Positions 1,868-20,715 of a stretch of 64,000 nt of DNA are shown here, piece by piece; positions within the stretch are counted from its first letter, which is position 1, and each line of letters begins with the position of its first letter. The notes under the pieces were generated by a model. That model was not told the DNA's origin. It saw only the letters and a program-made list of their open reading frames with translations, and made no database searches. Source of the DNA: a virus (taxonomy: Duplodnaviria > Caudoviricetes); the IMG/VR virus record IMGVR_UViG_3300028275_000007; one strand, 5' to 3'. The position numbers were made by a program, and so were the translations under genes.

Positions 1868-3235
1868 TTAATCGGCTCTAAATGGGGTCCAACGATCACG
1901 TGGAACTAGCTTAACACCGTGTCCTGTGTGCATATAACCCTCACCGCCTGGTTTTCCGCCAGTGTGTGCAGTAATATCGCCTTCGGCAGCATCTAGTTCA
2001 CGAATAATTTCGTCTTTGGCTTTCATTAATTCGCGCACTAAATGAAACATATTATCCATTACACCTGCGTTGGCCTTGTTTAATTCAGCAATCTTAGCCT
2101 GTTTTGGAGCACTGACTTTGCTGCCCTGTAGCCACTGAAAGAAACTGTTTGTGTCTATTTTATCTAAGGCTTTGGCCTTTGACTGATTGTTTACAAAGGT
2201 ATAGATGATTGTCTGTAGATCGCTTAGGCCTGCAACAGGTGCTAATAGTTGATCAATTTTAGGGCCAACTTGGTTGGCTAATTTTTCAATTACACCTAGA
2301 TTGTCTGCATTTACCGCAGGTTGATGTGCTACATAGGTTTGTCCAAACACTACAAGTTCTGGACTGACATTAAGAGCCTTAACATCTGTTAGATCATCTC
2401 CAGTCTTGTCACCAAAATAATCTAAATGTTTGTGAGCAGCAATAGCTACCTTAGCCTTACCCAATCTTACGCCAACTGGACTTGTTGCTCTAACTGAATA
2501 TGTAGTTTGATTAGGGGTAAAATTAATTTTACCATTACCACTGTCATAAGGTTTTCCAGGATGGAACAAGATATCACCATAGATATAACCTCTAAAATCT
2601 TTGGGAGTTCCCTTTTCAAAGATAGGCCATAGGCTAGCCATATCACCAGCAAATTTCTCACGCCAGTCTTCTCCTTTGCCGCGACTTAGGATAAACTGCT
2701 TGAGCTCTTCTGGGTTAGAACTCTTACCTTCTTCACGACCCCAGTTATTTTTACCTACCATACGGAAGGTACCATCTTCGTCTCTGCCCCAATAGACAGT
2801 TGGATTACCGTCCCACTTGATAGAAACATCTTTAGCATCAGATGCTAGACTTTTTAAAACTTCAACAGCACGTTTGGCACCACCGTGTTCTGTAAACACT
2901 AGATCTTCTAGGTGATTAAACTCACGACCTACTTTCTTAGGTACAGGTGCTTCGGCTTCTGTTACAGTTTCTTTATAAGGTTCCCACTTGGCACACCAAT
3001 AAGCAGGTTTGACCACAGGCTCACCTTTGAACTTGTCACACTTCTTAGTTTTACTATCATAGTAGCCGCAATTGCTACATTTTTGTTGCGCAGGCACTCC
3101 CGGATTTGACGCTGGCTGATACCTATCGGGTAAGCTGTCAGGAATATCACTGCCGTCAGGATATCTATTACTACGCTTGTAGCTCATAGCCTGTTTACCA
3201 GGTTTTGATTCTATCAAAAACTCAAAAGCTCTCAT
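1868..3235 (-). CDS. HiPIP-like 4Fe-4S domain fused to RNA-ligase-like (DUF6267-like) domain, with capsid-targeting-like leader
   Basis: Leader MRAFEFLIE; QKCSNCGYY..CDKFKG..V..YWCAKW; ligase-type motifs KWDG, YGDILF, EGYM, VKLV. Confidence 0.65.
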   Translation of the reverse strand: MRAFEFLIESKPGKQAMSYKRSNRYPDGSDIPDSLPDRYQPASNPGVPAQQKCSNCGYYDSKTKKCDKFKGEPVVKPAYWCAKWEPYKETVTEAEAPVPKKVGREFNHLEDLVFTEHGGAKRAVEVLKSLASDAKDVSIKWDGNPTVYWGRDEDGTFRMVGKNNWGREEGKSSNPEELKQFILSRGKGEDWREKFAGDMASLWPIFEKGTPKDFRGYIYGDILFHPGKPYDSGNGKINFTPNQTTYSVRATSPVGVRLGKAKVAIAAHKHLDYFGDKTGDDLTDVKALNVSPELVVFGQTYVAHQPAVNADNLGVIEKLANQVGPKIDQLLAPVAGLSDLQTIIYTFVNNQSKAKALDKIDTNSFFQWLQGSKVSAPKQAKIAELNKANAGVMDNMFHLVRELMKAKDEIIRELDAAEGDITAHTGGKPGGEGYMHTGHGVKLVPRDRWTPFRAD

Positions 3236-3432
3236 TTACTTTTTCCTGACTTCATATTAGCACACCAATGATACATTTTAGCCTTTTCACCACTTGCATT
3301 TTTTGCACGTTTGCGTAGATCTGTCACTGATCCAGAACAGCTAGCACCAGAACGTTTGACACGACCGGGGCGGCTCTTTCCCTTTACCTTTCCATCGGCA
3401 AAATTTTCAATGACAAACTCACTGGCTCTCAT
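3232..3432 (-). CDS. small basic protein with capsid-targeting-like leader
   Basis: Start at 3432 (TAATG overlap) gives MRASEFVIE|NFADGK... Confidence 0.65.
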   Translation of the reverse strand: MRASEFVIENFADGKVKGKSRPGRVKRSGASCSGSVTDLRKRAKNASGEKAKMYHWCANMKSGKSK

Positions 3433-4265
3433 TAGCAGTTCCAACGACGGCGTGCCTTACAGATTGCCTTGTCTGGTGTCTTGGCACAGCTGATGCTGTG
3501 CATTTTCATTTGTCCACGTGAACGAGAACAGTAGCTCTTACGGCGCTTGCTGGCCTTGCTACCTTTTTTAAGTTTGCTTGGCTTTGTGGTTACCGCAGTC
3601 TTTAACTTACTACCTGGATTTTCTCTACGATAGGCCTTTACAGCCTTACGGCTCATACCGTCTGTTTTGTCTTTCTTATTAACCTTTTGCCAATCTTCGT
3701 TTAGTTGAGAAGTAACAGCAAATACATATAGCTCGTCATCTGTTAAGGATTCTAGATCTTCCCAAACTACTTCTGGGTCTACACCGTTGCTTTCTGCAAT
3801 GTCTTCAATGATTGATTCAATAAGATCAAAGTCTTGTTCTAGTTCTAGACTTTCAGGAGTGTGGCTCATTTCGTGCTCGCTCTCTAGATAATCCCAAACT
3901 GTCTGCATATAATCTTCAGCAATGGATAATTTTTCCTGTACCCATTCTGGGAGGTTCTCTCCGTCTTTGATTAACTTAGATAAACCTACTGCGGCTCTAT
4001 GAATAGTGTGTAGGCTGTTTTGAGCCATTCCGGATTCATCATTATATTCTGCATCATCAAATGCTTCATTCTTAGGTTTCTTACCTTGCTTTTTCATATT
4101 AACTGCGATTGCAGCCTGTTGAGCAGGATTAGCAGCCTCTGGCACACAGTTAGGCACAGTCTTGCCGCCCTTCTTCTTTGTACCTACTGGATGATATCCT
4201 TTCCAGCAAGGGTTACTGTTCTTAAGAGTTTTTTTAGATTCTATTAGAATGTCGGTTATTCTCAT
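3432..4265 (-). CDS. modular protein with capsid-targeting-like leader
   Basis: Start 4265 (ATGA overlap) MRITDILIE; modules PCWKGY..VPNCV, AQQAAIA, LPEWVQEKL, C-terminal KRRKSYC..RRRWNC. Confidence 0.65.
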   Translation of the reverse strand: MRITDILIESKKTLKNSNPCWKGYHPVGTKKKGGKTVPNCVPEAANPAQQAAIAVNMKKQGKKPKNEAFDDAEYNDESGMAQNSLHTIHRAAVGLSKLIKDGENLPEWVQEKLSIAEDYMQTVWDYLESEHEMSHTPESLELEQDFDLIESIIEDIAESNGVDPEVVWEDLESLTDDELYVFAVTSQLNEDWQKVNKKDKTDGMSRKAVKAYRRENPGSKLKTAVTTKPSKLKKGSKASKRRKSYCSRSRGQMKMHSISCAKTPDKAICKARRRWNC

Positions 4266-5074
4266 TTTACCATATCCATAATTTTGCGCATCCAACTTGG
4301 ACTGTTAGGTGTGTAGTGCTCTAATGATTCTTTCTGTGGAAGTTCAATTCCTGAACGCCCTAGTGTTTCACGAGCAGCACTGACTAATTCGTCATAGTTA
4401 GGTAATTTTTTAATGTAATTAATGATAGCATCAACGGAACGAATATCTTTAACTGTTGCGGTTTGACCTAACAACTGTTTAGCAATAGTATTCCAATCAT
4501 CTCCACCTTTAACAGGTTCATTTGTTTCTGGATCAACTAGACCAAACTTAGGACTATATTTCATTCCTCTTGCACGAGCAATAGAACTTAGAACAATATG
4601 GCGATGCTCTCCTCGATACTGTCCCTGCCCACCAATCATACTTCCTTGCTGGAACTTAGGATTGTTAGAGAACATAAAGTCTGCTTGTACAAATCCGTTG
4701 GCTTCGTCACCTTTAATTGGTGTCTTTAAGTGTACAGAATCGCCACTTAATTTTACGCTGTCTTTGCCAAATTGTTGTGCTAGTTTTGTAGCAAATTCTT
4801 TCTTGTCTACTTCGTTAGCGTCAACTGATAAATCTAAATCTCCAGAACTGTTTAATTCAAAAGTTCCGTCTGGATGCTCTTTACGTCCAGTTGTACCTAG
4901 CCATTTTACAGGTTTTTTATCGTGAGGATCTAATTCTTTGGTGAAGTCTAGTCCTGTTACTTTTTCGATAAAAGCAATAGTGGCTGGAACATCTCCCGTA
5001 GCAATACGCTGCGTTAAAGGTTGTTTGTCTGGGCCTTTGAATACGTTTCCGCCCTCAAATAATTTATTCGTCAT
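4262..5074 (-). CDS. Pol-beta superfamily nucleotidyltransferase
   Basis: LGTTG...SSGDLDLSVD and later VQADFMF (GS/GT plus DxD plus third Asp). Confidence 0.65.
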   Translation of the reverse strand: MTNKLFEGGNVFKGPDKQPLTQRIATGDVPATIAFIEKVTGLDFTKELDPHDKKPVKWLGTTGRKEHPDGTFELNSSGDLDLSVDANEVDKKEFATKLAQQFGKDSVKLSGDSVHLKTPIKGDEANGFVQADFMFSNNPKFQQGSMIGGQGQYRGEHRHIVLSSIARARGMKYSPKFGLVDPETNEPVKGGDDWNTIAKQLLGQTATVKDIRSVDAIINYIKKLPNYDELVSAARETLGRSGIELPQKESLEHYTPNSPSWMRKIMDMVK

Positions 5075-5345
5075 TTGAATCTAATGGTTTATTAACTTTG
5101 CGTGATTCTGCTATTTTACGAATACCGCGTGTAAACTTTGCTGCATCTTGTCCACGGATAGCATTAATTAAGCGGCGCTCTAGCTCATCAGCTTGTTCTG
5201 GCGTATAGTTCTTATGAATACTTTCCAAAAGATTAATAGCTGAATTAATAATGTTAACGGCGCGACTTTCAAACAGCGAGTCCTTGTTACGGACTTCTGC
5301 TATTTCGTTCAATTCTTGCAGGATTGACCTAGTTCTTAATTTCAT
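5064..5345 (-). CDS. hypothetical late protein
   Basis: Helical ORF, TAAATA upstream (5365-5370). Confidence 0.6.
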   Translation of the reverse strand: MKLRTRSILQELNEIAEVRNKDSLFESRAVNIINSAINLLESIHKNYTPEQADELERRLINAIRGQDAAKFTRGIRKIAESRKVNKPLDSNDE

Positions 5346-5504
5346 AATCAACTCGTTTATAATATATTTAACTCAAATTAAATCATATTGTAAATTAAAA
5401 AAACAATAAAGTCAAAGCCGTAAATGTGCAGATGCAGCATATCCCAACTAAATACTCAGTAGAAACCATTAGTTTTTACAGACACTTACAGAGGATATCA
5501 CACA

Positions 5505-5681
5505 ATGAAAACCGTATCAAACTTTATGCTAGGGCTTATGGAACGCCTAGCAGAAATGTTTCCAGAAAGTTCCTATCAAAGTCGCTTAGACAGCTATCTA
5601 AGTACCAAAGGCATTACCGATGCCGCACAGTTAGAAAACTATATCCGACAATTTAATTCTCAAAAGGAATCTTACCTATGA
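5505..5681 (+). CDS. small protein, DUF3563-like (not in ORF track)
   Basis: 58 aa MKTVSNFMLGLMERLAEMFPESSYQSRLDSYLSTKGITDAAQLENYIRQF; GAGG RBS; family resemblance from memory. Confidence 0.5.
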   Translation: MKTVSNFMLGLMERLAEMFPESSYQSRLDSYLSTKGITDAAQLENYIRQFNSQKESYL

Positions 5682-5794
5682 AAACATTCTTAAACAGTAT
5701 CTACGTTTTTTTTGAAGCAATGGGCAAAGCTCGTGCTGCCGCAGTACTGGCAAGATCAGGAAAAGTAGAAGAAGCACAAGCTCTATACAAATGA
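5678..5794 (+). CDS. 38-aa small protein (not in ORF track)
   Basis: AAGGA RBS, ATGA overlap, MKTFLNSIYVFFEAMGKARAAAVLARSGKVEEAQALYK. Confidence 0.5.
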   Translation: MKTFLNSIYVFFEAMGKARAAAVLARSGKVEEAQALYK

Positions 5795-5870
5795 GCAAAA
5801 AAGTTTAGAAAAAAGTTGATTTTTATCAACAAAAGATATATAATTTACACATTAACACAGAGGAGAAAAA

Positions 5871-6083
5871 ATGTTCACACCAGATTCATTTATTGAAGCA
5901 TATCAAAACACCAAGCGTGTTTTTGTCAATACAGTTGTAACTGACAAGGTTATCAAACAATCTGTACTAGACTTAATCGATGCACAAACAGCTTTTGCTA
6001 AGACCGTTAGCCAAAACGCTATTGATCTTGCTAAATATTCTACGGACGCATACGCTAGTGTATTGTTTCCAAAGAAGGCCTAA
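5871..6083 (+). CDS. phasin-like amphipathic protein
   Basis: 70-aa amphipathic A/T/Q-rich helix (LIDAQTAFAKTVSQNAIDL), GGAG RBS, own promoter. Confidence 0.4.
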   Translation: MFTPDSFIEAYQNTKRVFVNTVVTDKVIKQSVLDLIDAQTAFAKTVSQNAIDLAKYSTDAYASVLFPKKA

Positions 6084-6129
6084 TCCACCTAACGGATATA
6101 GACACAAACACACACACAAGGAGAAAATT

Positions 6130-6411
6130 ATGTCTAATGAATTTTTTAAAACACCAGAAATGAAAACACCAGAAGTTAAATTCAACAAAAACGGTTATGA
6201 AATCCGTACAGAAATCTTAGAAATGGCTAAAGAGCTTGTTTCTCAAGACTTCCACGTTAAGTTCCAAGGTTGGGAATTAACAGCAGAACGTGATGAAAAG
6301 ACTGGTCAAATTGTAACTAAGGTAGGTATGCCTGAATTCCCAGGCCTAGATAAAGTATTAGAAACCGCCGAAAAAATGTACGCATTTGTTAACAACGGCG
6401 TGAAGAAATAA
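6130..6411 (+). CDS. hypothetical phage protein
   Basis: Start 6130 after AAGGAG; KNGYEIRTEILEMAKEL. Confidence 0.7.
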   Translation: MSNEFFKTPEMKTPEVKFNKNGYEIRTEILEMAKELVSQDFHVKFQGWELTAERDEKTGQIVTKVGMPEFPGLDKVLETAEKMYAFVNNGVKK

Positions 6412-6440
6412 TATTAGGCTCATAGAGCAAATATAATAGA

Positions 6441-6476
6441 AAAAAGAAAAGCACTCTTCGGAGTGCTTTTTCTTTT
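6441..6476. terminator. bidirectional intrinsic terminator with C(UUCG)G loop
   Basis: AAAAGCACTC-TTCG-GAGTGCTTTT between convergent genes. Confidence 0.85.
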
Positions 6477-7059
6477 ATAGTGCTTTGGATATTTTTTCTA
6501 AAATGATTTTAACAGTCTTATCGCTGATCACAACTTCGTAATGATTTAATGGAAGCTCTATTTGTTCAAAGTCTTTGCGACTGCGCATACTCTTTAATGT
6601 AACTACTCCGTCATTATCACCTTGTATCCAAGGACTTTGCCCAACAGTAGAAACTATCTGAGTCCAATTTGGAGGAGCAGGTAAATCCCTCGATTCACGC
6701 ATCGGTGTACTCATTGTTCCAATATCTTTCATTAATTGATTGAATGGTACAAAGTACCTAGCAAAGTCTGCTTGTTCGCTGCCACCATAGGGTGTCGACA
6801 GGCTAACTCCTCCGTGTGTAGTTTCTTTATAATAATTGGCCAGATGCAGAGCGTAGATACCTCCTAGACTATGACTGATAAAGAAAAGTCTATCAGCATC
6901 ATCTAATTTGCCCTTCATTTGTTTTAGATTATGTTCAAACCCATCTTCGCTTTTGTACTCAAGCATAATATCGGGTTCGTCAAAATAATCTCTTACATAT
7001 TGTCTAATGTGAGTGAAACTTTCAGAAGTTGCACTAGCACCGTGTATGTAAACAATCAT
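6475..7059 (-). CDS. alpha/beta hydrolase (esterase/lipase)
   Basis: HGAS oxyanion loop, SHSLGG nucleophile elbow, DGVV acid, NHYE His. Confidence 0.85.
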   Translation of the reverse strand: MIVYIHGASATSESFTHIRQYVRDYFDEPDIMLEYKSEDGFEHNLKQMKGKLDDADRLFFISHSLGGIYALHLANYYKETTHGGVSLSTPYGGSEQADFARYFVPFNQLMKDIGTMSTPMRESRDLPAPPNWTQIVSTVGQSPWIQGDNDGVVTLKSMRSRKDFEQIELPLNHYEVVISDKTVKIILEKISKAL

Positions 7060-7060
7060 C

Positions 7061-7765
7061 TTACTTCCTTAATTCAGCTATCCTTAAAACTCTAAACAAA
7101 CTTAACCACATCCAACCAATGTCAAACTCAAACCATCGACGGCTTAGTTTAGGACTTGCTGGGCTAAGGTGATGATTGTTATGAAGCTCTTCCCCACCAA
7201 TGATAATACCCCAAGGACTAATATTGCGACTACGATCATTGCTAATTCCGTTTTTATATCCATACCAATGTCCTACTCCGTTGATAACTCCTGCTGCCCA
7301 GAAAGGAATCCAAAGCATTTGTATACCCCAAACTACTAGTCCTACAGGTCCAAAAAGAACAAGGTCTATGACCAACATTAAGAGAATCCCCCAGCGACTG
7401 TGTGGGGTATACAAATTACGTTCGATCCAATCATCCGGAGTACCAACTCCGTATTGTTGAATCATTTCAGAATCTTTACTTGCAGTATGATATAATACAG
7501 CACCTTTAAACAACACACGCCAAATACCGTATACGTGCGGACTATGCGGGTCGCCTTGTTCATCACTAAATCTGTGATGCTTACGATGTATCGCCACCCA
7601 TTGTTTTGTGACCATACCAGTAGTAAGCCATAACCAAAAACGTATTAGATGTTCAAATATAAAATTAAAGGTTATGCCTCTATGAGCCTGTCCACGATGC
7701 AGGTATAGTGTGACGCACACTATTGTGATGTGCGTCATCACTAACGTTGCTAAAATAATTTCCAT
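7061..7765 (-). CDS. membrane fatty-acid (delta-9 acyl-CoA type) desaturase
   Basis: His boxes HRGQAH, HRKHH, HNNHH plus TM segments. Confidence 0.9.
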   Translation of the reverse strand: MEIILATLVMTHITIVCVTLYLHRGQAHRGITFNFIFEHLIRFWLWLTTGMVTKQWVAIHRKHHRFSDEQGDPHSPHVYGIWRVLFKGAVLYHTASKDSEMIQQYGVGTPDDWIERNLYTPHSRWGILLMLVIDLVLFGPVGLVVWGIQMLWIPFWAAGVINGVGHWYGYKNGISNDRSRNISPWGIIIGGEELHNNHHLSPASPKLSRRWFEFDIGWMWLSLFRVLRIAELRK

Positions 7766-7772
7766 CTAATAT

Positions 7773-8981
7773 TTAGTGGAACTGATCTGCCTCTGTGCTG
7801 GACTTATTAGCAACTGTTGATGTAGCACCAACTGCTTCACTAATCAAATCAAAGTAACCAACGCCAACTTCACGTTGATGTTTAACTGTTGTAAAGCCAC
7901 GAGCCTGTGCTTCAAACTCACGCTGTTGCATTTCTGAATACCCAGCCATACCACGTTGTTTATAGGCTTCTGCTAATTCAAATGTAGCAAGGTTAACTGA
8001 ATGGAATCCTGCTAGTGTAATGAACTGAAACTTATAGCCTAACGCACCTAATTCACGTTGGAATGTTTCACATTCTTCAATGCTTAAAAACTTTTGCCAA
8101 TTAAAACTAGGACTGCAATTATAAGCAAGCATTTGATCAGGATACTGGGCACGGATCGCTTCAGCAAACTTTCTAGCCTGTGCGATATCAGGTGTGCTAG
8201 TTTCGAACCAAAGGAGATCAGCGTAAGGGGCATAAGCAAGACCTCTGCTAATACAAGCATCAAGCCCGTTTTTAAATTTGTAAAAGCCTTCGTCAGTGCG
8301 TTCATCAATAATAAAGTCCTTGTCCAATGGATCGTGATTGCTGGTAATAAGTGTAGCAGACTCTGCGTCGGTACGTGCCATAATAACTGTTTCTACTCCT
8401 GCTACATCGCTAGCAAGACGTGCGGCCTGTAGGTTACGAATAGCTTGGCTAGTGGGAATTAAAACCTTACCGCCTAAGTGTCCACATTTCTTTTCGCTAG
8501 ATAGTTGATCTTCAAAGTGTACGCCTGCGGCGCCTGCTTCGATCATAGCCATCATAAGTTCATATGCGTTTAATGCGCCACCAAAACCTGCTTCTGCGTC
8601 AGCTACAATTGGCAAGAAATAATCTGTTGTTAAATTGCCTTCACTGTGTTCGATTTGATCGGCACGACGGAACGCATTATTGATTTGCTTAACGATTGTG
8701 GGCACTGAATTTACTGGATATAAACTTTGATCAGGATATGTTTGTCCTGCTGTATTTGCGGCTGCGGCCACTTGCCAGCCTGATAGATAAATTGCTTTGA
8801 GTCCTGCTTTGGCGTGTTGTACGGCTTGTTGGCCGCTGTACGCTCCTAGCGTGTTAACGTATGGTTCTGTTGCTAGTAACTCACGTAGTTTGGTTGCACC
8901 ACGTTTGGCTAAAGTATGCTCAATTTGTAATGAGCCTTGTAACTTGCGGACTGTGTCTTGTGTGTAGTTGCGCTTCTTCAT
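7773..8981 (-). CDS. aceA: isocitrate lyase
   Basis: KKCGHLGGK active-site loop, [33 protein letters not shown]. Confidence 0.97.
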
Positions 8982-9085
8982 TTGGTTCTCCTTAAAAGCC
9001 TAGTATTTATGGCTCTTCTAGAGGACTTGACAAAATCATTATCTGAGTATATAATATTAGAGTAAAATAATAGATTGGACATACA

Positions 9086-9673
9086 ATGAAAGACAAAGTA
9101 ATACTCACTGACGCCGATGGCGTTCTACTAGATTGGGAATGGGCATTTGATGTTTGGATGCAGGAACACGGATTCAAACGTCAAGAAGGTAGCCAATTTG
9201 TTTATAGCATTGGTAAACGCTACGGTATTGATATGGAGCAGGGCAAGAAGCTGATTAAGATTTTTAATGAATCTGCTCATATGGGATTTTTACCTGCCCT
9301 ACGTGATGCTCAACATTATGTAAAACGCTTACACGAAGAACACGGTTATGTATTCCATTGTATCACTAGCCTAAGCAAAGATCGTAACGCTCAAAAACTA
9401 CGTAAGATGAATATGCGTAAGTTGTTTGGTGAAACTGCATTTGATAAGTTTATTATCCTAGACACAGGTGCAGACAAAGACGAAGTGTTAGAACAATATC
9501 GTGGGACAGGCTGCTGGTGGATTGAAGATAAAATCACCAATGCCGTCGCTGGTCATAACGTAGGACTAAAACCTCTGCTTATGGAACACGGTCACAATAT
9601 GGATTTTGAACACGCAGAAATTCCAAGAGTTCAATCCTGGAAAGACATTTACGAAATTATCGTAAACGGTTAA
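9086..9673 (+). CDS. HAD-family 5'(3')-deoxyribonucleotidase-like phosphatase
   Basis: DADGVLLDW motif I, WIEDK motif IV; sigma70 promoter TTGACA 9027 / TATAAT 9050. Confidence 0.8.
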   Translation: MKDKVILTDADGVLLDWEWAFDVWMQEHGFKRQEGSQFVYSIGKRYGIDMEQGKKLIKIFNESAHMGFLPALRDAQHYVKRLHEEHGYVFHCITSLSKDRNAQKLRKMNMRKLFGETAFDKFIILDTGADKDEVLEQYRGTGCWWIEDKITNAVAGHNVGLKPLLMEHGHNMDFEHAEIPRVQSWKDIYEIIVNG

Positions 9674-15969: not shown

Positions 15970-16011
15970 TTGATAATCTCCGATCTAATATTTAGCGTAA
16001 ATACAGTTACT

Positions 16012-17220
16012 ATGATAAACAAAGAACCCTTCAAACATTTAATAAAAGATCTAAAATCTAACGGAAAATATCGTGTGTTTAACGACATTCTTCGTGAAAA
16101 CGGCAAGTTTCCACAGGCTATTTGGTACGGACCGTATGCCATTAAAAATATAGTTAATTGGTGTTCTAATGATTATTTAGGTATGGGTCAATCTAAAGTT
16201 GTTTTAGATGCTATGCACACAGCTCTAGATATGACTGGTGCTGGTTCGGGAGGTACTCGTAATATTGGCGGCACTAGCCACTATCACGTTGCTCTAGAAC
16301 ACGAACTAGCAAAATTACATAATAAAGCCAGTGCTCTTTTGTTTAGCTCTGCGTATGTTGCCAACGAATGGACATTGATTGCTCTAAGTAAGATCATTCC
16401 TAATATACATTTTGTCAGCGACGAAAATAATCATAACAGTTTAATCATAGGTATGAGTCATAGTCGTGCTTCTAAGACTGTGTTCAAACACAACGATCTA
16501 CAACATTTAGAAGATATACTGTGTTCAGTAAAGTTAGCTGGTCAGACTCCGTGTATTGTGTTTGAAAGTGTTTACTCAATGGACGGAGATGTAGGGGAGA
16601 TAAAAGGAATCTGTGATCTAGCAGACAAGTATGAAGCAATCACTTATATTGATGAAGTACACGCGGTAGGGCTATACGGAACGCACGGTGGCGGCAAAGT
16701 TGAAGAGCTAGGCCTTGAACACCGAATTGATATAATCAATGGAACTCTAGGCAAGGCGTATGGTGTCCAAGGTGGCTATATAGCTGCCGATGCTGATGTA
16801 ATTGATGCTATTCGTTCAGTGGCAGCTGGATTTATCTTTACTACAAGTCTAAGTCCTGTTACCTGTGCAGGTGCTCTTGCTGCTGTCAAATACCTAAAAG
16901 AGCACAACGAGATTCGTGAGAAACATCAAGAACGTGCTCGCAAACTAAAACATAGATTGAACAATAACGGTATTCCAGTTATGGAATGTTCTACTACTCA
17001 CATAGTGCCGGTACTGATAGGGGAAGCTAAGAAGTGTAAGGCCATTAGCGATGACCTACTCAACGAACATAATATCTATGTGCAGCCTATTAATTATCCA
17101 ACTGTCGATGTAGGCACAGAACGACTACGGTTTGCACCTACACCGTTTCACGATGACGGAATGATTGAAGACTTAATCGCTGCTCTCAAAGAAAGTTTTA
17201 GTAAATTTGATTTGAAGTAA
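16012..17220 (+). CDS. hemA: 5-aminolevulinate synthase (PLP, Shemin C4 pathway)
   Basis: [52 protein letters not shown]. Confidence 0.92.
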
Positions 17221-18064
17221 GGAATGTAAAATACTTTTTAATTCCTTCCCAAGGTTCTAAAAACAAATCTGTCTTTACACCTGCTTGTTCCAATGCTCGA
17301 GTATCGGCCTTTGTATCTGTTTGATACTGTGCTTTTAGATCGTCGGGCATAGGAATATAAACTTTACTACCTTTAGAAGATTCGTGAATAACTATGTTTG
17401 CGATACTTTCAAAGTCAACACTTTCGCCTGTGCCTAGGTCATAGACACCCGGTTGATAATTCTGTATAAAGTGATAGATTGTACTGGCAACATCTTCTAC
17501 CCAGATAAAGTCTCTTTTAAATTGTTTGCTGTTTTCAAATATCTTTATAACTTCTTCTTTTTGAAGTTGATTGTACCAATGGTATATTGTACTGGCCATA
17601 CGGCCCTTATGATATTCGTTTGGTCCATAGACATTAAACAATCTTAGAACAACTCCGTTGATTTCATTTTCGCTTACCTGCTTGCTAAATGCATAATGAT
17701 TTAGTGGGCCGTTACCGTTACCGTAGACTGCTGCTGAACTTGTAAAGATAAACGGGATATTGTTTTCAGAACAAAAATGATTCCAACGGCGTGTGCTCAA
17801 CACGTTGGTATTATAAAGACTTTTCCAATCACGCTGTAGTGTACTAGAGTCTGCACCTATGTGTATGACTGCTTCAATCGTATCTGAGTCACTGGGCATT
17901 TCATCTGTAGAGTGTAGAGATATGTATTTTTTATTTGTTAAATTTTTATATTGATCAGCTGTTGGCAAATCGTCAAACAATACAATATCATCCCTTCCTT
18001 GTTTGTTTAGGTAACCTAATACCACACTACCGATAAATCCGCCTGCACCAGTTAATATAATCAT
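17198..18064 (-). CDS. hldD: ADP-L-glycero-D-manno-heptose 6-epimerase
   Basis: [40 protein letters not shown]. Confidence 0.9.
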
Positions 18065-18819
18065 AATATTTCTTCCATAGTAGGAGCATAGCAGCCAACG
18101 TGCTGAACTGTAACGGCAGCAGCCTGATTAGCAAAGTCCATTGCTTGTTTGATGTCTTTGGTATGTAGAAAGTTATAGACTAGTGCAGCAAGGAATGTAT
18201 CTCCTGCTCCCGTAACATCAACAACTTCAACCTTTGGTGCTTTAGAGGTATACTCGTGATGCACAGCTTCTGCACCTTTGCTGCCGCGTGTGACAATTAA
18301 CCCACTACATTCACTTTTAATTTTGCTGTGTTCTAATTCATTGATCTTAACCCACGCTCCTTGCATACGCTCTAGGTCAGTCTTCTTGGTATCGATGAAC
18401 ACAGGAATTCTAGTAGCGATAGCTTCTTCTATAACATCGTAAGTTATTGTGCCTTTATTGTAATCACTGATAACAATAGCATCGTAGACCTTAGGAATAG
18501 CTGTTTCAAACGTCAACGGGTCAGATACGATGTCATTGTCAATGCGTACAATCTGTTGTTTGCTACGAGCATCGATTAGTCTAGTCTTGGTGCTGGTTTC
18601 ACCGAACAGATAGTTTACTTCGCAGCCTAGCGACTCTAGATTGTTAAACACATTGCCTGCCATACCATCACGTTCTTCTACATAAGTAGGAACGAACACA
18701 GGTACTGGAGCTTCAGGACTTAATCGATCAATTGTACCGTACTGATAGATGTCTTTGCAATTATCGCCTATCAATAATATCTTGAATTGTTTTTGTTGTT
18801 GAGTGTTCTGTTCTGTCAT
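18061..18819 (-). CDS. hldA: D-glycero-beta-D-manno-heptose-7-P kinase (HldE N-domain, PfkB)
   Basis: RLSPEAPVPV, GMAGNV, SDYNKG, DVTGAGDTF. Confidence 0.9.
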   Translation of the reverse strand: MTEQNTQQQKQFKILLIGDNCKDIYQYGTIDRLSPEAPVPVFVPTYVEERDGMAGNVFNNLESLGCEVNYLFGETSTKTRLIDARSKQQIVRIDNDIVSDPLTFETAIPKVYDAIVISDYNKGTITYDVIEEAIATRIPVFIDTKKTDLERMQGAWVKINELEHSKIKSECSGLIVTRGSKGAEAVHHEYTSKAPKVEVVDVTGAGDTFLAALVYNFLHTKDIKQAMDFANQAAAVTVQHVGCYAPTMEEIL

Positions 18820-19767: not shown

Positions 19768-20128
19768 TCTGGCTGTCTCCGGGGATAATTCTATAGTTAT
19801 CCTCTACGCTGTCTGCTGTACTCACTTCAAAGATCATAGAGTTAGGTTGAAGAGCAATTAGTTGATGCGGCATCATTGGAGGATTATGCCAGGTTTCGCC
19901 TTCGTTAAGAATCTTTTCAACGTAGGTTGCCGTTTTTGTATCGCAGTAAACTAACCTAAACTTGCCTGCGTTAACAAACCAAGTTTCTTCTTTTTCTTTG
20001 TGAAAGTGCATACTAAACTTTGCACCTTCACGTTCGAATACCATAATCTTTCCGCAGTATTTGTCGTTGGTGGCCCAAATAATTTCGTAGCCCCAACCCT
20101 TGTCTACTTTACCTGTTAATCTTGTCAT
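19742..20128 (-). CDS. cupin (sugar-isomerase-like)
   Basis: [21 protein letters not shown]. Confidence 0.75.
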
Positions 20129-20715
20129 GGTCGCTTCTCAATAACTTTATCGATAAGTCCGTACTCTAGAGCTTCTTCTGCACTCATAAACTTATCACGA
20201 TCCATATCGCGTTCGAAGTCTTGGTAGGTCTTACCTTTGGTGTTGTGCTTAACATATAGTTCTGTTAAACGTTTCTTAATATGCATAATTTCTTTGTATG
20301 AAATCTCAATGTCAGATGCCATACCTCTCGCACCACCCGATGGTTGATGGATCATATGACGAGCATTTGGCAGCATAAAACGTTTGCCTGCTGCTCCTGC
20401 ATTGGCAAGGAACGAGCCCATTGAACAGGCCTGTCCCATTACATAGGTTGCTACATCGCATTTAATAAATTGCATAGTATCATAAATGCTTAGGCCTGCT
20501 GTGACTACACCGCCTGGACTATTAATAAACAAATTGATATCTTTATTTGGATCTTCTGATTCTAAAAACAATAACTGAGATACAATCAAATTAGCCATAT
20601 GGTCTTCTACAGGACCGTTTAGCATAATAATACGCTCGCGAAGCAAACGACTGTAAATGTCATAGGCTCGTTCGCCTTTGGATGTAGACTCAATAACTAC
20701 TGGTACCAAACTCAT
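20125..20715 (-). CDS. clpP: ATP-dependent Clp protease proteolytic subunit
   Basis: [49 protein letters not shown]; sigma70-type promoter upstream (about 20742-20770). Confidence 0.95.

Follow-up and report, generated by a model that had tools for sequence, protein, structure and literature searches.

The stretch of DNA analysed here (the window) comprises 64,000 nucleotides of the IMG/VR virus record IMGVR_UViG_3300028275_000007 and contains, between positions 5,505 and 8,981, three genes encoding an isocitrate lyase (ICL; aceA), a short membrane fatty-acid desaturase and a small alpha/beta serine hydrolase, together with a set of small genes on the opposite strand. An earlier reading, made from the letters of this DNA and the translations of its open reading frames (ORFs) and referred to below as the sequence-only reading, had proposed that these genes serve a hijack of host storage carbon and lipid. 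The proposal was followed up using profile, structure and comparative searches, in which the neighbour counts rest on 81 ICL loci and 79 hydrolase loci. The coordinates of the features are collected in Table 1.

Operon organisation and transcription signals

The genes for the ICL, the desaturase and the hydrolase are all carried on the minus strand, separated from one another by 7 nt and 1 nt, and the stop codon of the desaturase is overlapped by the ribosome-binding site (RBS) of the hydrolase; the adjacency noted by the sequence-only reading was thus borne out. As that reading had also proposed, the operon and the small genes of the plus strand converge on a shared terminator (6446-6471).

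Late-type motifs had been called before both aceA and the desaturase, and the two calls fared differently. The motif before aceA, ATAAATA at 9004-9010, was found to be kept as CCATAAATACT in relatives, including those that carry another ICL type, and the box is present in many relatives in which the sequence farther upstream varies. In the window ATAAATA is rarer than expected (10 copies against 18), and seven of the 10 copies are followed at a distance of 4-26 nt by a start codon of their own strand. Because the motif is depleted, lies mostly before starts and is conserved while the upstream sequence varies, the CCATAAATACT box fits a T4-type late promoter. The candidate TATAAATA was rejected as the late promoter, as its 4 copies against 4.35 expected amount to no enrichment and the shorter ATAAATA fits better. 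The TAAATA near the desaturase overlaps the stop codon of aceA and ends 4 nt ahead of the desaturase ATG, and is therefore unable to serve as its promoter.

In four RNA libraries the small-gene stretch was recovered as its own contig, and fragments of aceA were present in all four; in three runs the contig ends at 6419-6427, which is weak evidence for the terminator. As the RNA-library data consist of contigs, in which depth cannot rank genes and uncovered parts prove nothing, such presence hints only weakly, if at all, at transcription.

Table 1. Position, strand and characteristics of the features in the window
Feature	Position	Strand	Characteristics
aceA, isocitrate lyase, 402 aa	7773-8981	(-)	NF011645, PF00463, KKCGH
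Short DesA-family membrane fatty-acid desaturase, 234 aa	7061-7765	(-)	NF049918, three His boxes
Minimal alpha/beta serine hydrolase (esterase/lipase/thioesterase-like), 194 aa, no signal peptide	6475-7059	(-)	Fold model, invariant triad
Late-type promoter box CCATAAATACT	9002-9012	(-)	ATAAATA core 9004-9010, 23 nt before aceA ATG
Bidirectional intrinsic terminator	6446-6471	both	Stem of 10-11 pairs, T-runs on each strand
Two overlapping micro-ORFs, 58 aa and 38 aa	5505-5681, 5678-5794	(+)	Homologues 44-56% identical in related loci
Sigma-70-type promoter TTGATT-17-TATAAT for g70 and g93	5816-5844	(+)	-35 within palindrome
g70, conserved helical-hairpin protein, 70 aa	5871-6083	(+)	AlphaFold2 pLDDT 92, helices 4-22 and 26-65
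g93, conserved phage protein, 93 aa	6130-6411	(+)	Strong RBS
TGC-N4-GCA box TGCAGATGCA (5427-5436), then TAAATA (5449-5454)	5427-5454	(+)	Upstream of the micro-ORFs
Consensus sigma-70 promoter TTGACA-17-TATAAT, perfect	9027-9055	(+)	Drives NT5C/HAD-like gene 9086-9673, divergent from aceA
5-Aminolevulinate (ALA) synthase	15970-17220	(+)	TIGR01821 577 bits, cut-off 339
ADP-heptose 6-epimerase-like and heptose-7-phosphate kinase-like genes and ClpP protease	17198-18819, 20125-20715	(-)	First two below equivalog cut-offs; host-like

Isocitrate lyase

The identification of aceA with its KKCGH signature (residues 164-168) was upheld by an NF011645 score of 686.4 bits, against an equivalog cut-off of 562, and by a Pfam match to PF00463 (E = 4.9e-101). 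The best isocitrate lyase in the PDB was 6lrp, to residues 36-436 of which residues 4-402 of the window enzyme were aligned using phmmer (E = 2e-173). The motifs of aceA, including TLAGFH, line up with those of 6lrp, and the catalytic and binding motifs are invariant in five diverse viral copies. The N-terminus is shorter than that of cellular enzymes by 25-35 residues, with alignments that begin at model position 27 and, in the PDB chains, at residue 25-36, and every member of the main viral ICL clade has 401-402 aa. By its motifs, the product of aceA is a working-looking, catalytically intact isocitrate lyase. Malate synthase is absent from the window, in agreement with the sequence-only reading (the longest ORF has 496 aa and none is long enough), and PF01274 was not found in five related phage records, two of which are complete.

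Viral contigs in IMG/VR that carry an ICL of the window type (85-96% identity) number at least 190, and many more copies occur among metagenome proteins; the contigs on record for this protein reach 207,869 bases. The nearest cellular ICLs found are 62-67% identical and scattered over many phyla, and the viral ICLs form one side of a branch with a support of 99 in the Shimodaira-Hasegawa-like approximate likelihood ratio test (SH-aLRT). Directly adjoining the ICL, the short desaturase occurs in 26 of the 81 loci, on at least five unrelated backbones, and the hydrolase in five loci, mostly in the order ICL-hydrolase-desaturase. The genes nrdA-nrdB precede the ICL, or flank it on both sides, in about 47 of the 81 loci, and genes for glutaredoxin, IscA, IscU/NifU and ferritin/Dps are close to the ICL in those phage loci. 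Examples are loci L031, L040, L060, L065 and L068 and about 40 others, in which the ICL stands immediately behind nrdB or is enclosed by the two nrd genes and has no promoter of its own. In several relatives (L002-L008, L010 and L053; e.g. L003:1939-2592), a class II aldolase (PF00596) separates the ICL from the desaturase or comes right after the ICL.

A second ICL type in sister phages

A different ICL, 60-63% identical to that of the window, is found at about 2794-4000 of each locus in the sister phages L203-L210 and L247, whose backbone is as in the window (HAD-like, ICL, hydrolase, desaturase, g93, g70, g95 and g270). The flanking proteins are mostly 60-90% identical to those of the window, with g70, the g270 homologue and one micro-ORF down to 37-46%. 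The sister ICL has a full-length N-terminus and is 76-81% identical to ICLs of Burkholderiales and Neisseriales; its gene is preceded by the same CCATAAATA-type box, and the hydrolase and desaturase genes are tightly coupled with it. Since these phages share the backbone of the window and carry an ICL so close to those of Burkholderiales and Neisseriales, the host of the window phage is probably a betaproteobacterium.

A maximum-likelihood tree placed the sister ICL inside eleven betaproteobacterial rows (SH-aLRT 98). However, a single viral ICL clade was not rejected by the approximately unbiased (AU) test (p = 0.18), and two independent captures were accordingly not accepted as settled, as this value leaves room for one capture followed by fast divergence. 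The sequences would thus fit either two ICL captures or one betaproteobacterial capture after which the main viral clade diverged fast and lost its N-terminal part; the position of the ICL within the operon is maintained under either history.

Desaturase

The His-box desaturase called by the sequence-only reading was recovered with all three boxes, HRGQAH at residues 23-28, HRKHH at 60-64 and HNNHH at 195-199 (HX4H, HX2HH and HX2HH), and with hydrophobic segments. It passes the DesA-family profile NF049918 marginally (401.3 bits, cut-off 400) and spans just positions 9-241 of the 385 in that profile; over residues 15-247 of a Paraburkholderia desaturase of 394 aa, the identity is 54%. We take NF049918 to be the family of the Pseudomonas aeruginosa DesA-type aerobic phospholipid delta-9 desaturase. 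Thousands of homologues have a size of 232-240 aa, and a tblastn search of 50,697 phage records gave no match at E <= 1e-5. The possibility that the hydrolase is the detached C-terminal part of DesA, i.e. that a single gene was split, was ruled out.

Hydrolase

The third gene had been described as a GxSxG hydrolase. The alpha/beta hydrolase assignment with a Ser-Asp-His triad held, whereas the nucleophile elbow is SHSLG and not a strict GxSxG; S64 (within SHSLG), D150 and H173 are invariant across 30 homologues and constitute the predicted triad. The best Pfam match, Abhydrolase_6, remained below threshold (22.5 bits against 26.3), as did PGAP1, DUF676 and UPF0227, and a profile search of the PDB yielded weak matches to family-I lipases alone (E 0.015-0.1). 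A model generated using AlphaFold2, with a predicted local distance difference test (pLDDT) score of 81, gave Bacillus LipA as the top Foldseek match (E ~3e-6), and in the fold comparison (VIA Z 17-18 over 170-180 residues) carboxylesterases, monoacylglycerol lipases and the thioesterase TesA tie. Both the modelled fold and the weak similarities in sequence suggest a small lipase, esterase or thioesterase.

The family is present in at least 535 viral contigs. The desaturase follows the hydrolase in 20 of the 79 hydrolase loci and the ICL precedes it in 14 of the 79; in other loci pstS (PBP_like_2) and the phosphate-selective porin gene OprO/P come directly after the hydrolase, or a radical SAM gene lies nearby. 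The hydrolase-pstS-OprO/P arrangement was seen in L249, L250 and nine further loci (4648-7170 of the locus), and these neighbours are hints that the hydrolase may have a role in phosphate-stress lipid remodelling.

Plus-strand small genes

The small genes of the plus strand are genuine genes that are conserved among relatives, and g70 and g93 are each preceded by a strong RBS. A perfect palindrome, GTTGAT-TTTT-ATCAAC (5815-5830), covers the -35 element of their promoter and is operator-like, and was not kept in the relatives inspected; the GATATATAAT -10 region before the g70 gene is retained in relatives. Proteins 70-87% identical to g93 were found in 13 of the 81 ICL loci and 15 of the 79 hydrolase loci, and the nearest language-model clusters of g93 are viral hypotheticals throughout. 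For g70, 74 relatives were found, all of them small (43-161 aa), and g93 accompanies g70 in related loci. Two strain variants were noted in the river RNA-library assemblies: an A>C change at 5843, inside the -10 hexamer, in two of them, and a shortening by 2 bases at 6108, within an AC-rich repeat (6090-6125) between g70 and g93, in all four.

The sequence-only reading had described the micro-ORFs as DUF3563-like and g70 as phasin-like. The former gave no Pfam match at E <= 0.1, so that DUF3563 (PF12086) was not recovered, nor any match in PHROG or NCBIfam; related phage records were likewise free of DUF3563 at E <= 10. For g70, Pfam, profile-profile comparison, a hidden Markov model (HMM) with a reversed control and a fold search were all without a phasin signal. 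In Pfam, none of 48 g70-family members matched Phasin or Phasin_2 at E <= 1. Alignment of the family against 33 Burkholderiales phasins using hhalign, in a phasin alignment prepared without locus L187 (genome G041), gave probabilities of 0.9% (local) and 3.7% (global), with the first residues alone aligning; across comparisons with one, 6 and 33 phasins the probability ranged from 0.15 to 3.7%, and BLASTP against one phasin was also tried. The phasin HMM gave the g70 family at most 7.9 bits and reversed sequences 7.7 bits and, because the reversed sequences score equally, the score is compositional. With the g70 model (pLDDT 92), Foldseek found no similar fold in the PDB at E < 1.

When related phage records were searched with the Phasin_2 HMM, a 90-aa member of the family from a complete 374-kb phage (G002:C1:205867-206139; L201:468-740, minus strand) matched with 15 bits (cut-off 24.9; E = 0.008 for that genome), a score for which the reversed-sequence control suggests a helical composition rich in Ala, Lys and Glu as the cause. 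In a language-model search the viral cluster nearest to g70 bears the automatic name 'Phasin family protein', and the nearest Pfam-bearing clusters are Phasin_2 (13% of members, 0.86) and PHB_acc (0.82), scores that serve as leads only. Phasin homology of g70 was rejected, as all that the six approaches leave is a signal of composition and a short motif at the N-terminus. Two plasmids on which the desaturase lies beside phasin or phbB genes (one from Paraburkholderia, with a phasin) were likewise set aside as chance, since none of 37 Burkholderiales phasin loci has a desaturase within 1.5 kb. The plus-strand small genes are a unit separate from the operon, with a predicted sigma-70-type promoter, and are not detectably phasins.

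Source phage and samples

Matches to PHROG and Pfam families across the window, among them a DnaB-like helicase, primase, DNA ligase, virion structural proteins, ClpP and HNH endonucleases, indicate a large T4-related phage; one structural protein is 50% identical to that of cyanophage S-RIM32. Near-identical DNA occurs in six river metatranscriptome runs and in riverine metagenomes (at least 18 runs), and megablast of the region against phage records gave no match.

Interpretation of the operon

The trio is found again with its genes in another order and with an ICL of a different type, and all three genes of the window keep their catalytic motifs. On balance we favour, with slightly more confidence than doubt, the reading that the region holds a three-gene late auxiliary-metabolic operon in which an ICL bypass would be combined with a desaturase and an esterase acting on lipids, the small genes standing apart. 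Of the storage-carbon and lipid hijack put forward by the sequence-only reading, the part that leads from lipid to glyoxylate is coherent and plausible, the metabolic-gene operon itself being real, and the part that concerns polyhydroxybutyrate (PHB) was left without support. The desaturase and the lid-less esterase/lipase would most likely act on membrane acyl lipids, and we infer from the recurrent linkage that all three enzymes may act jointly in a single lipid-to-carbon pathway.

Late in infection, the phage ICL would cleave isocitrate to succinate and glyoxylate, by which the infected cell would skip the two CO2-losing steps of the tricarboxylic acid (TCA) cycle, and the glyoxylate would be used downstream by the malate synthase or other glyoxylate users of the host. 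The desaturase would add cis double bonds to existing membrane acyl lipids without new fatty-acid synthesis, and the esterase would free or trim their acyl chains; fatty acid freed in this manner would pass through beta-oxidation to acetyl-CoA and make the bypass useful. The route from lipid via acetyl-CoA to the glyoxylate bypass would be chemically coherent because a lipase/esterase/thioesterase-like hydrolase is encoded with the ICL in one late operon.

Several observations weigh against this interpretation. Most ICL loci hold neither the desaturase nor the hydrolase, with nrdAB, glutaredoxin, IscA/IscU and ferritin genes there instead, so that a lipid link of the ICL is not general; nor is storage-carbon mobilisation its general context, as the ICL is found mostly beside ribonucleotide reductase (RNR), glutaredoxin and iron-sulphur (Fe-S)/ferritin genes, with a desaturase in about one third of the loci and a hydrolase in few. 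Two complete ICL-bearing phage genomes are without malate synthase in the PF01274 search. The window desaturase is missing the C-terminal ~150 residues of cellular DesA and depends on an electron donor, and the fold matches of the hydrolase are tied over many esterase classes and single out no substrate. Furthermore, adjacency in variable phage regions can mean common insertion sites rather than a common pathway.

The last point leads to the foremost alternative, namely that the three genes were acquired independently and share a permissive insertion site and a transcript but no joint pathway. Most of the hydrolase-bearing viral contigs have neither the ICL nor the desaturase, and the neighbours there include pstS, the OprO/P porin and radical SAM genes; the ICL mostly lacks both partners, and the gene order varies (ICL-desaturase-hydrolase in the window, ICL-hydrolase-desaturase elsewhere). 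However, the ICL-desaturase adjacency across unrelated backbones, and the retention of the trio in sister phages although their ICL belongs to another lineage, make independent acquisition unlikely, if still deserving of attention. An ambitious extension of the favoured lipid-to-glyoxylate reading carries a similarly small probability: the operon would be a selected lipid-salvage module of phages of river Betaproteobacteria, in which host membrane or storage lipid is stripped late and acetyl-CoA is turned by the phage ICL into net C4 compounds and energy, with a value high enough that its ICL was captured twice or kept at one operon position in two very different forms, and the carbon store of the host possibly sensed through the TGC..GCA box ahead of the adjoining micro-ORFs.

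The glyoxylate shunt has a role in bacteria under iron limitation and oxidative stress. The ICL might accordingly be imagined to spare redox capacity and iron by steering carbon off the NADH-generating TCA steps, lowering respiratory load and oxidative stress, and to travel with enzymes that use iron and oxygen (the di-iron desaturase and di-iron RNR). The placement of the ICL after or between nrdA-nrdB in most loci, with glutaredoxin, IscA, IscU/NifU and ferritin/Dps nearby, is consistent with this, as are the NifU and peroxiredoxin genes in the ICL region of the C48C1 phage. As this is evidence of association, as such genes cluster in T4-like variable regions anyway, and as no Fe-S or ferritin gene adjoins the window operon, we regard redox and iron sparing as decidedly unlikely to explain the operon.

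Many Betaproteobacteria store PHB, and the likely hosts are Betaproteobacteria, as judged by the backbone shared with phages that carry the Betaproteobacteria-like ICL. The sequence-only reading had the phasin-like protein binding granules, the hydrolase depolymerising polyhydroxyalkanoate (PHA) and the ICL assimilating acetyl-CoA from host PHB or lipid, and the language-model leads of g70 and the sub-threshold Phasin_2 match of its longer relative lie in that direction. Against it stand the negative HMM, hhalign, Pfam and fold searches of g70 and the hydrolase, which matches no PHB-depolymerase family: Esterase_PHB (PF10503) and PhaZ (TIGR01849) are not among its Pfam or NCBIfam matches, and a search of five related phage records, of which up to three are complete, gave genes of neither type. 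The fold lists of the hydrolase are compatible with a LipA-like depolymerase, and structure alone therefore does not decide this question.

A regulatory link to PHB was also considered. The palindromic core YGCR-N-YGCR is described for PhaR at regulated promoters (PMC12542648). No PhaR-type TGC..GCA box was found at the aceA or g70 promoters of the window. The box TGCAGATGCA at the micro-ORF promoter resembles PhaR sites, but has a 4-nt spacer where the published core has 3 nt; a box with TGC..GCA arms occurs at the same place, ahead of (T)ATAAATA, in relatives L014, L058, L019 and L006. As the bare TGC-N4-GCA pattern is common in the window (29 copies), it is the position and conservation of this box that are notable. 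Taken together, mobilisation of PHB granules appears quite improbable.

Least probable of all is a supply of precursors, with glyoxylate going to glycine and succinate to succinyl-CoA for the phage ALA synthase 7 kb away, or glycine to purines: both substrates of this enzyme are one step from the ICL products, viral AlaS is active (PMC11480375), the gene is also in the records of the two closest relatives and no phage malate synthase was found in related records, but no glyoxylate aminotransferase was identified, aceA and alaS lie on opposite strands with separate promoters, and three complete ICL-bearing phage genomes are without alaS, for which reason linkage of ICL and ALA synthase as a general rule was rejected.

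Comparison with known systems

Phage ICLs, phage desaturases and phage ALA synthases are already published kinds, and in the literature no description was found of a DesA-type short desaturase joined to an ICL, of an accessory minimal esterase or of a host-like ICL at the same operon position. The ICLs of freshwater phages are abundant yet merely catalogued, and the question they raise is what role they have without malate synthase, for which the recurrent ICL-desaturase pair, the accessory esterase and the natural swap to a host-like ICL in sister phages are handles. The idea of a phage phasin or of PHB tapping for the g70 family rests on helical composition and not on detectable homology.

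Like the Burkholderiales phasins (PhaP; PF09361), g70 is small and all-helical, and it starts M-F-T-P-D-x-F where they have M-Y-x-T-P-E-Q-F. Unlike them (171-202 aa in the comparison set), it has 70 aa and no HMM, profile or fold support. The hydrolase resembles LipA of Bacillus subtilis and Bacillus pumilus (1i6w, 7r1k; ~180-195 aa) in size and in its lid-less alpha/beta fold, and shares the [A/S]-H-S-x-G nucleophile elbow with LipA and small esterases; it differs from LipA, carboxylesterases, monoacylglycerol lipases and TesA in that the sequence identity is 9-18%, with no Pfam family at threshold.

The predicted desaturase is 53-57% identical over the catalytic domain to cellular DesA of Legionella, Burkholderia, Ralstonia and Variovorax and has the same three His boxes, but is without the C-terminal third (~150 aa) of those 385-394-aa enzymes. 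Cyanophages carry lipid desaturases that have been proposed to adjust host membrane lipids in infection (Roitman et al., 2018; PMC5776448). The window enzyme is likewise a phage-borne membrane His-box desaturase; unlike the cyanophage enzymes, it belongs to the proteobacterial DesA family (NF049918), consists of the 234-aa catalytic core and is linked to an ICL.

Phage ICLs are known from viromes (Hurwitz et al., 2013; PMC4053976), an aceBA operon has been described in a T4-like marine viral genome (Nishimura et al., 2017; PMC5332604), and 98 ICLs have been reported in huge phages, the freshwater copies being without an adjacent malate synthase (bioRxiv 10.1101/2025.02.27.640493). Like these, the window ICL has intact catalytic motifs and is carried as a phage metabolic gene and, as with the freshwater copies, no malate synthase adjoins it. 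Unlike them, it is the first gene of a late operon that also encodes a desaturase and an esterase; it falls in a tight viral clade whose members are 85-96% identical, share at most 67% identity with the cellular ICLs found and have a shortened N-terminus, and in sister phages its place is taken by a second, Betaproteobacteria-like ICL.

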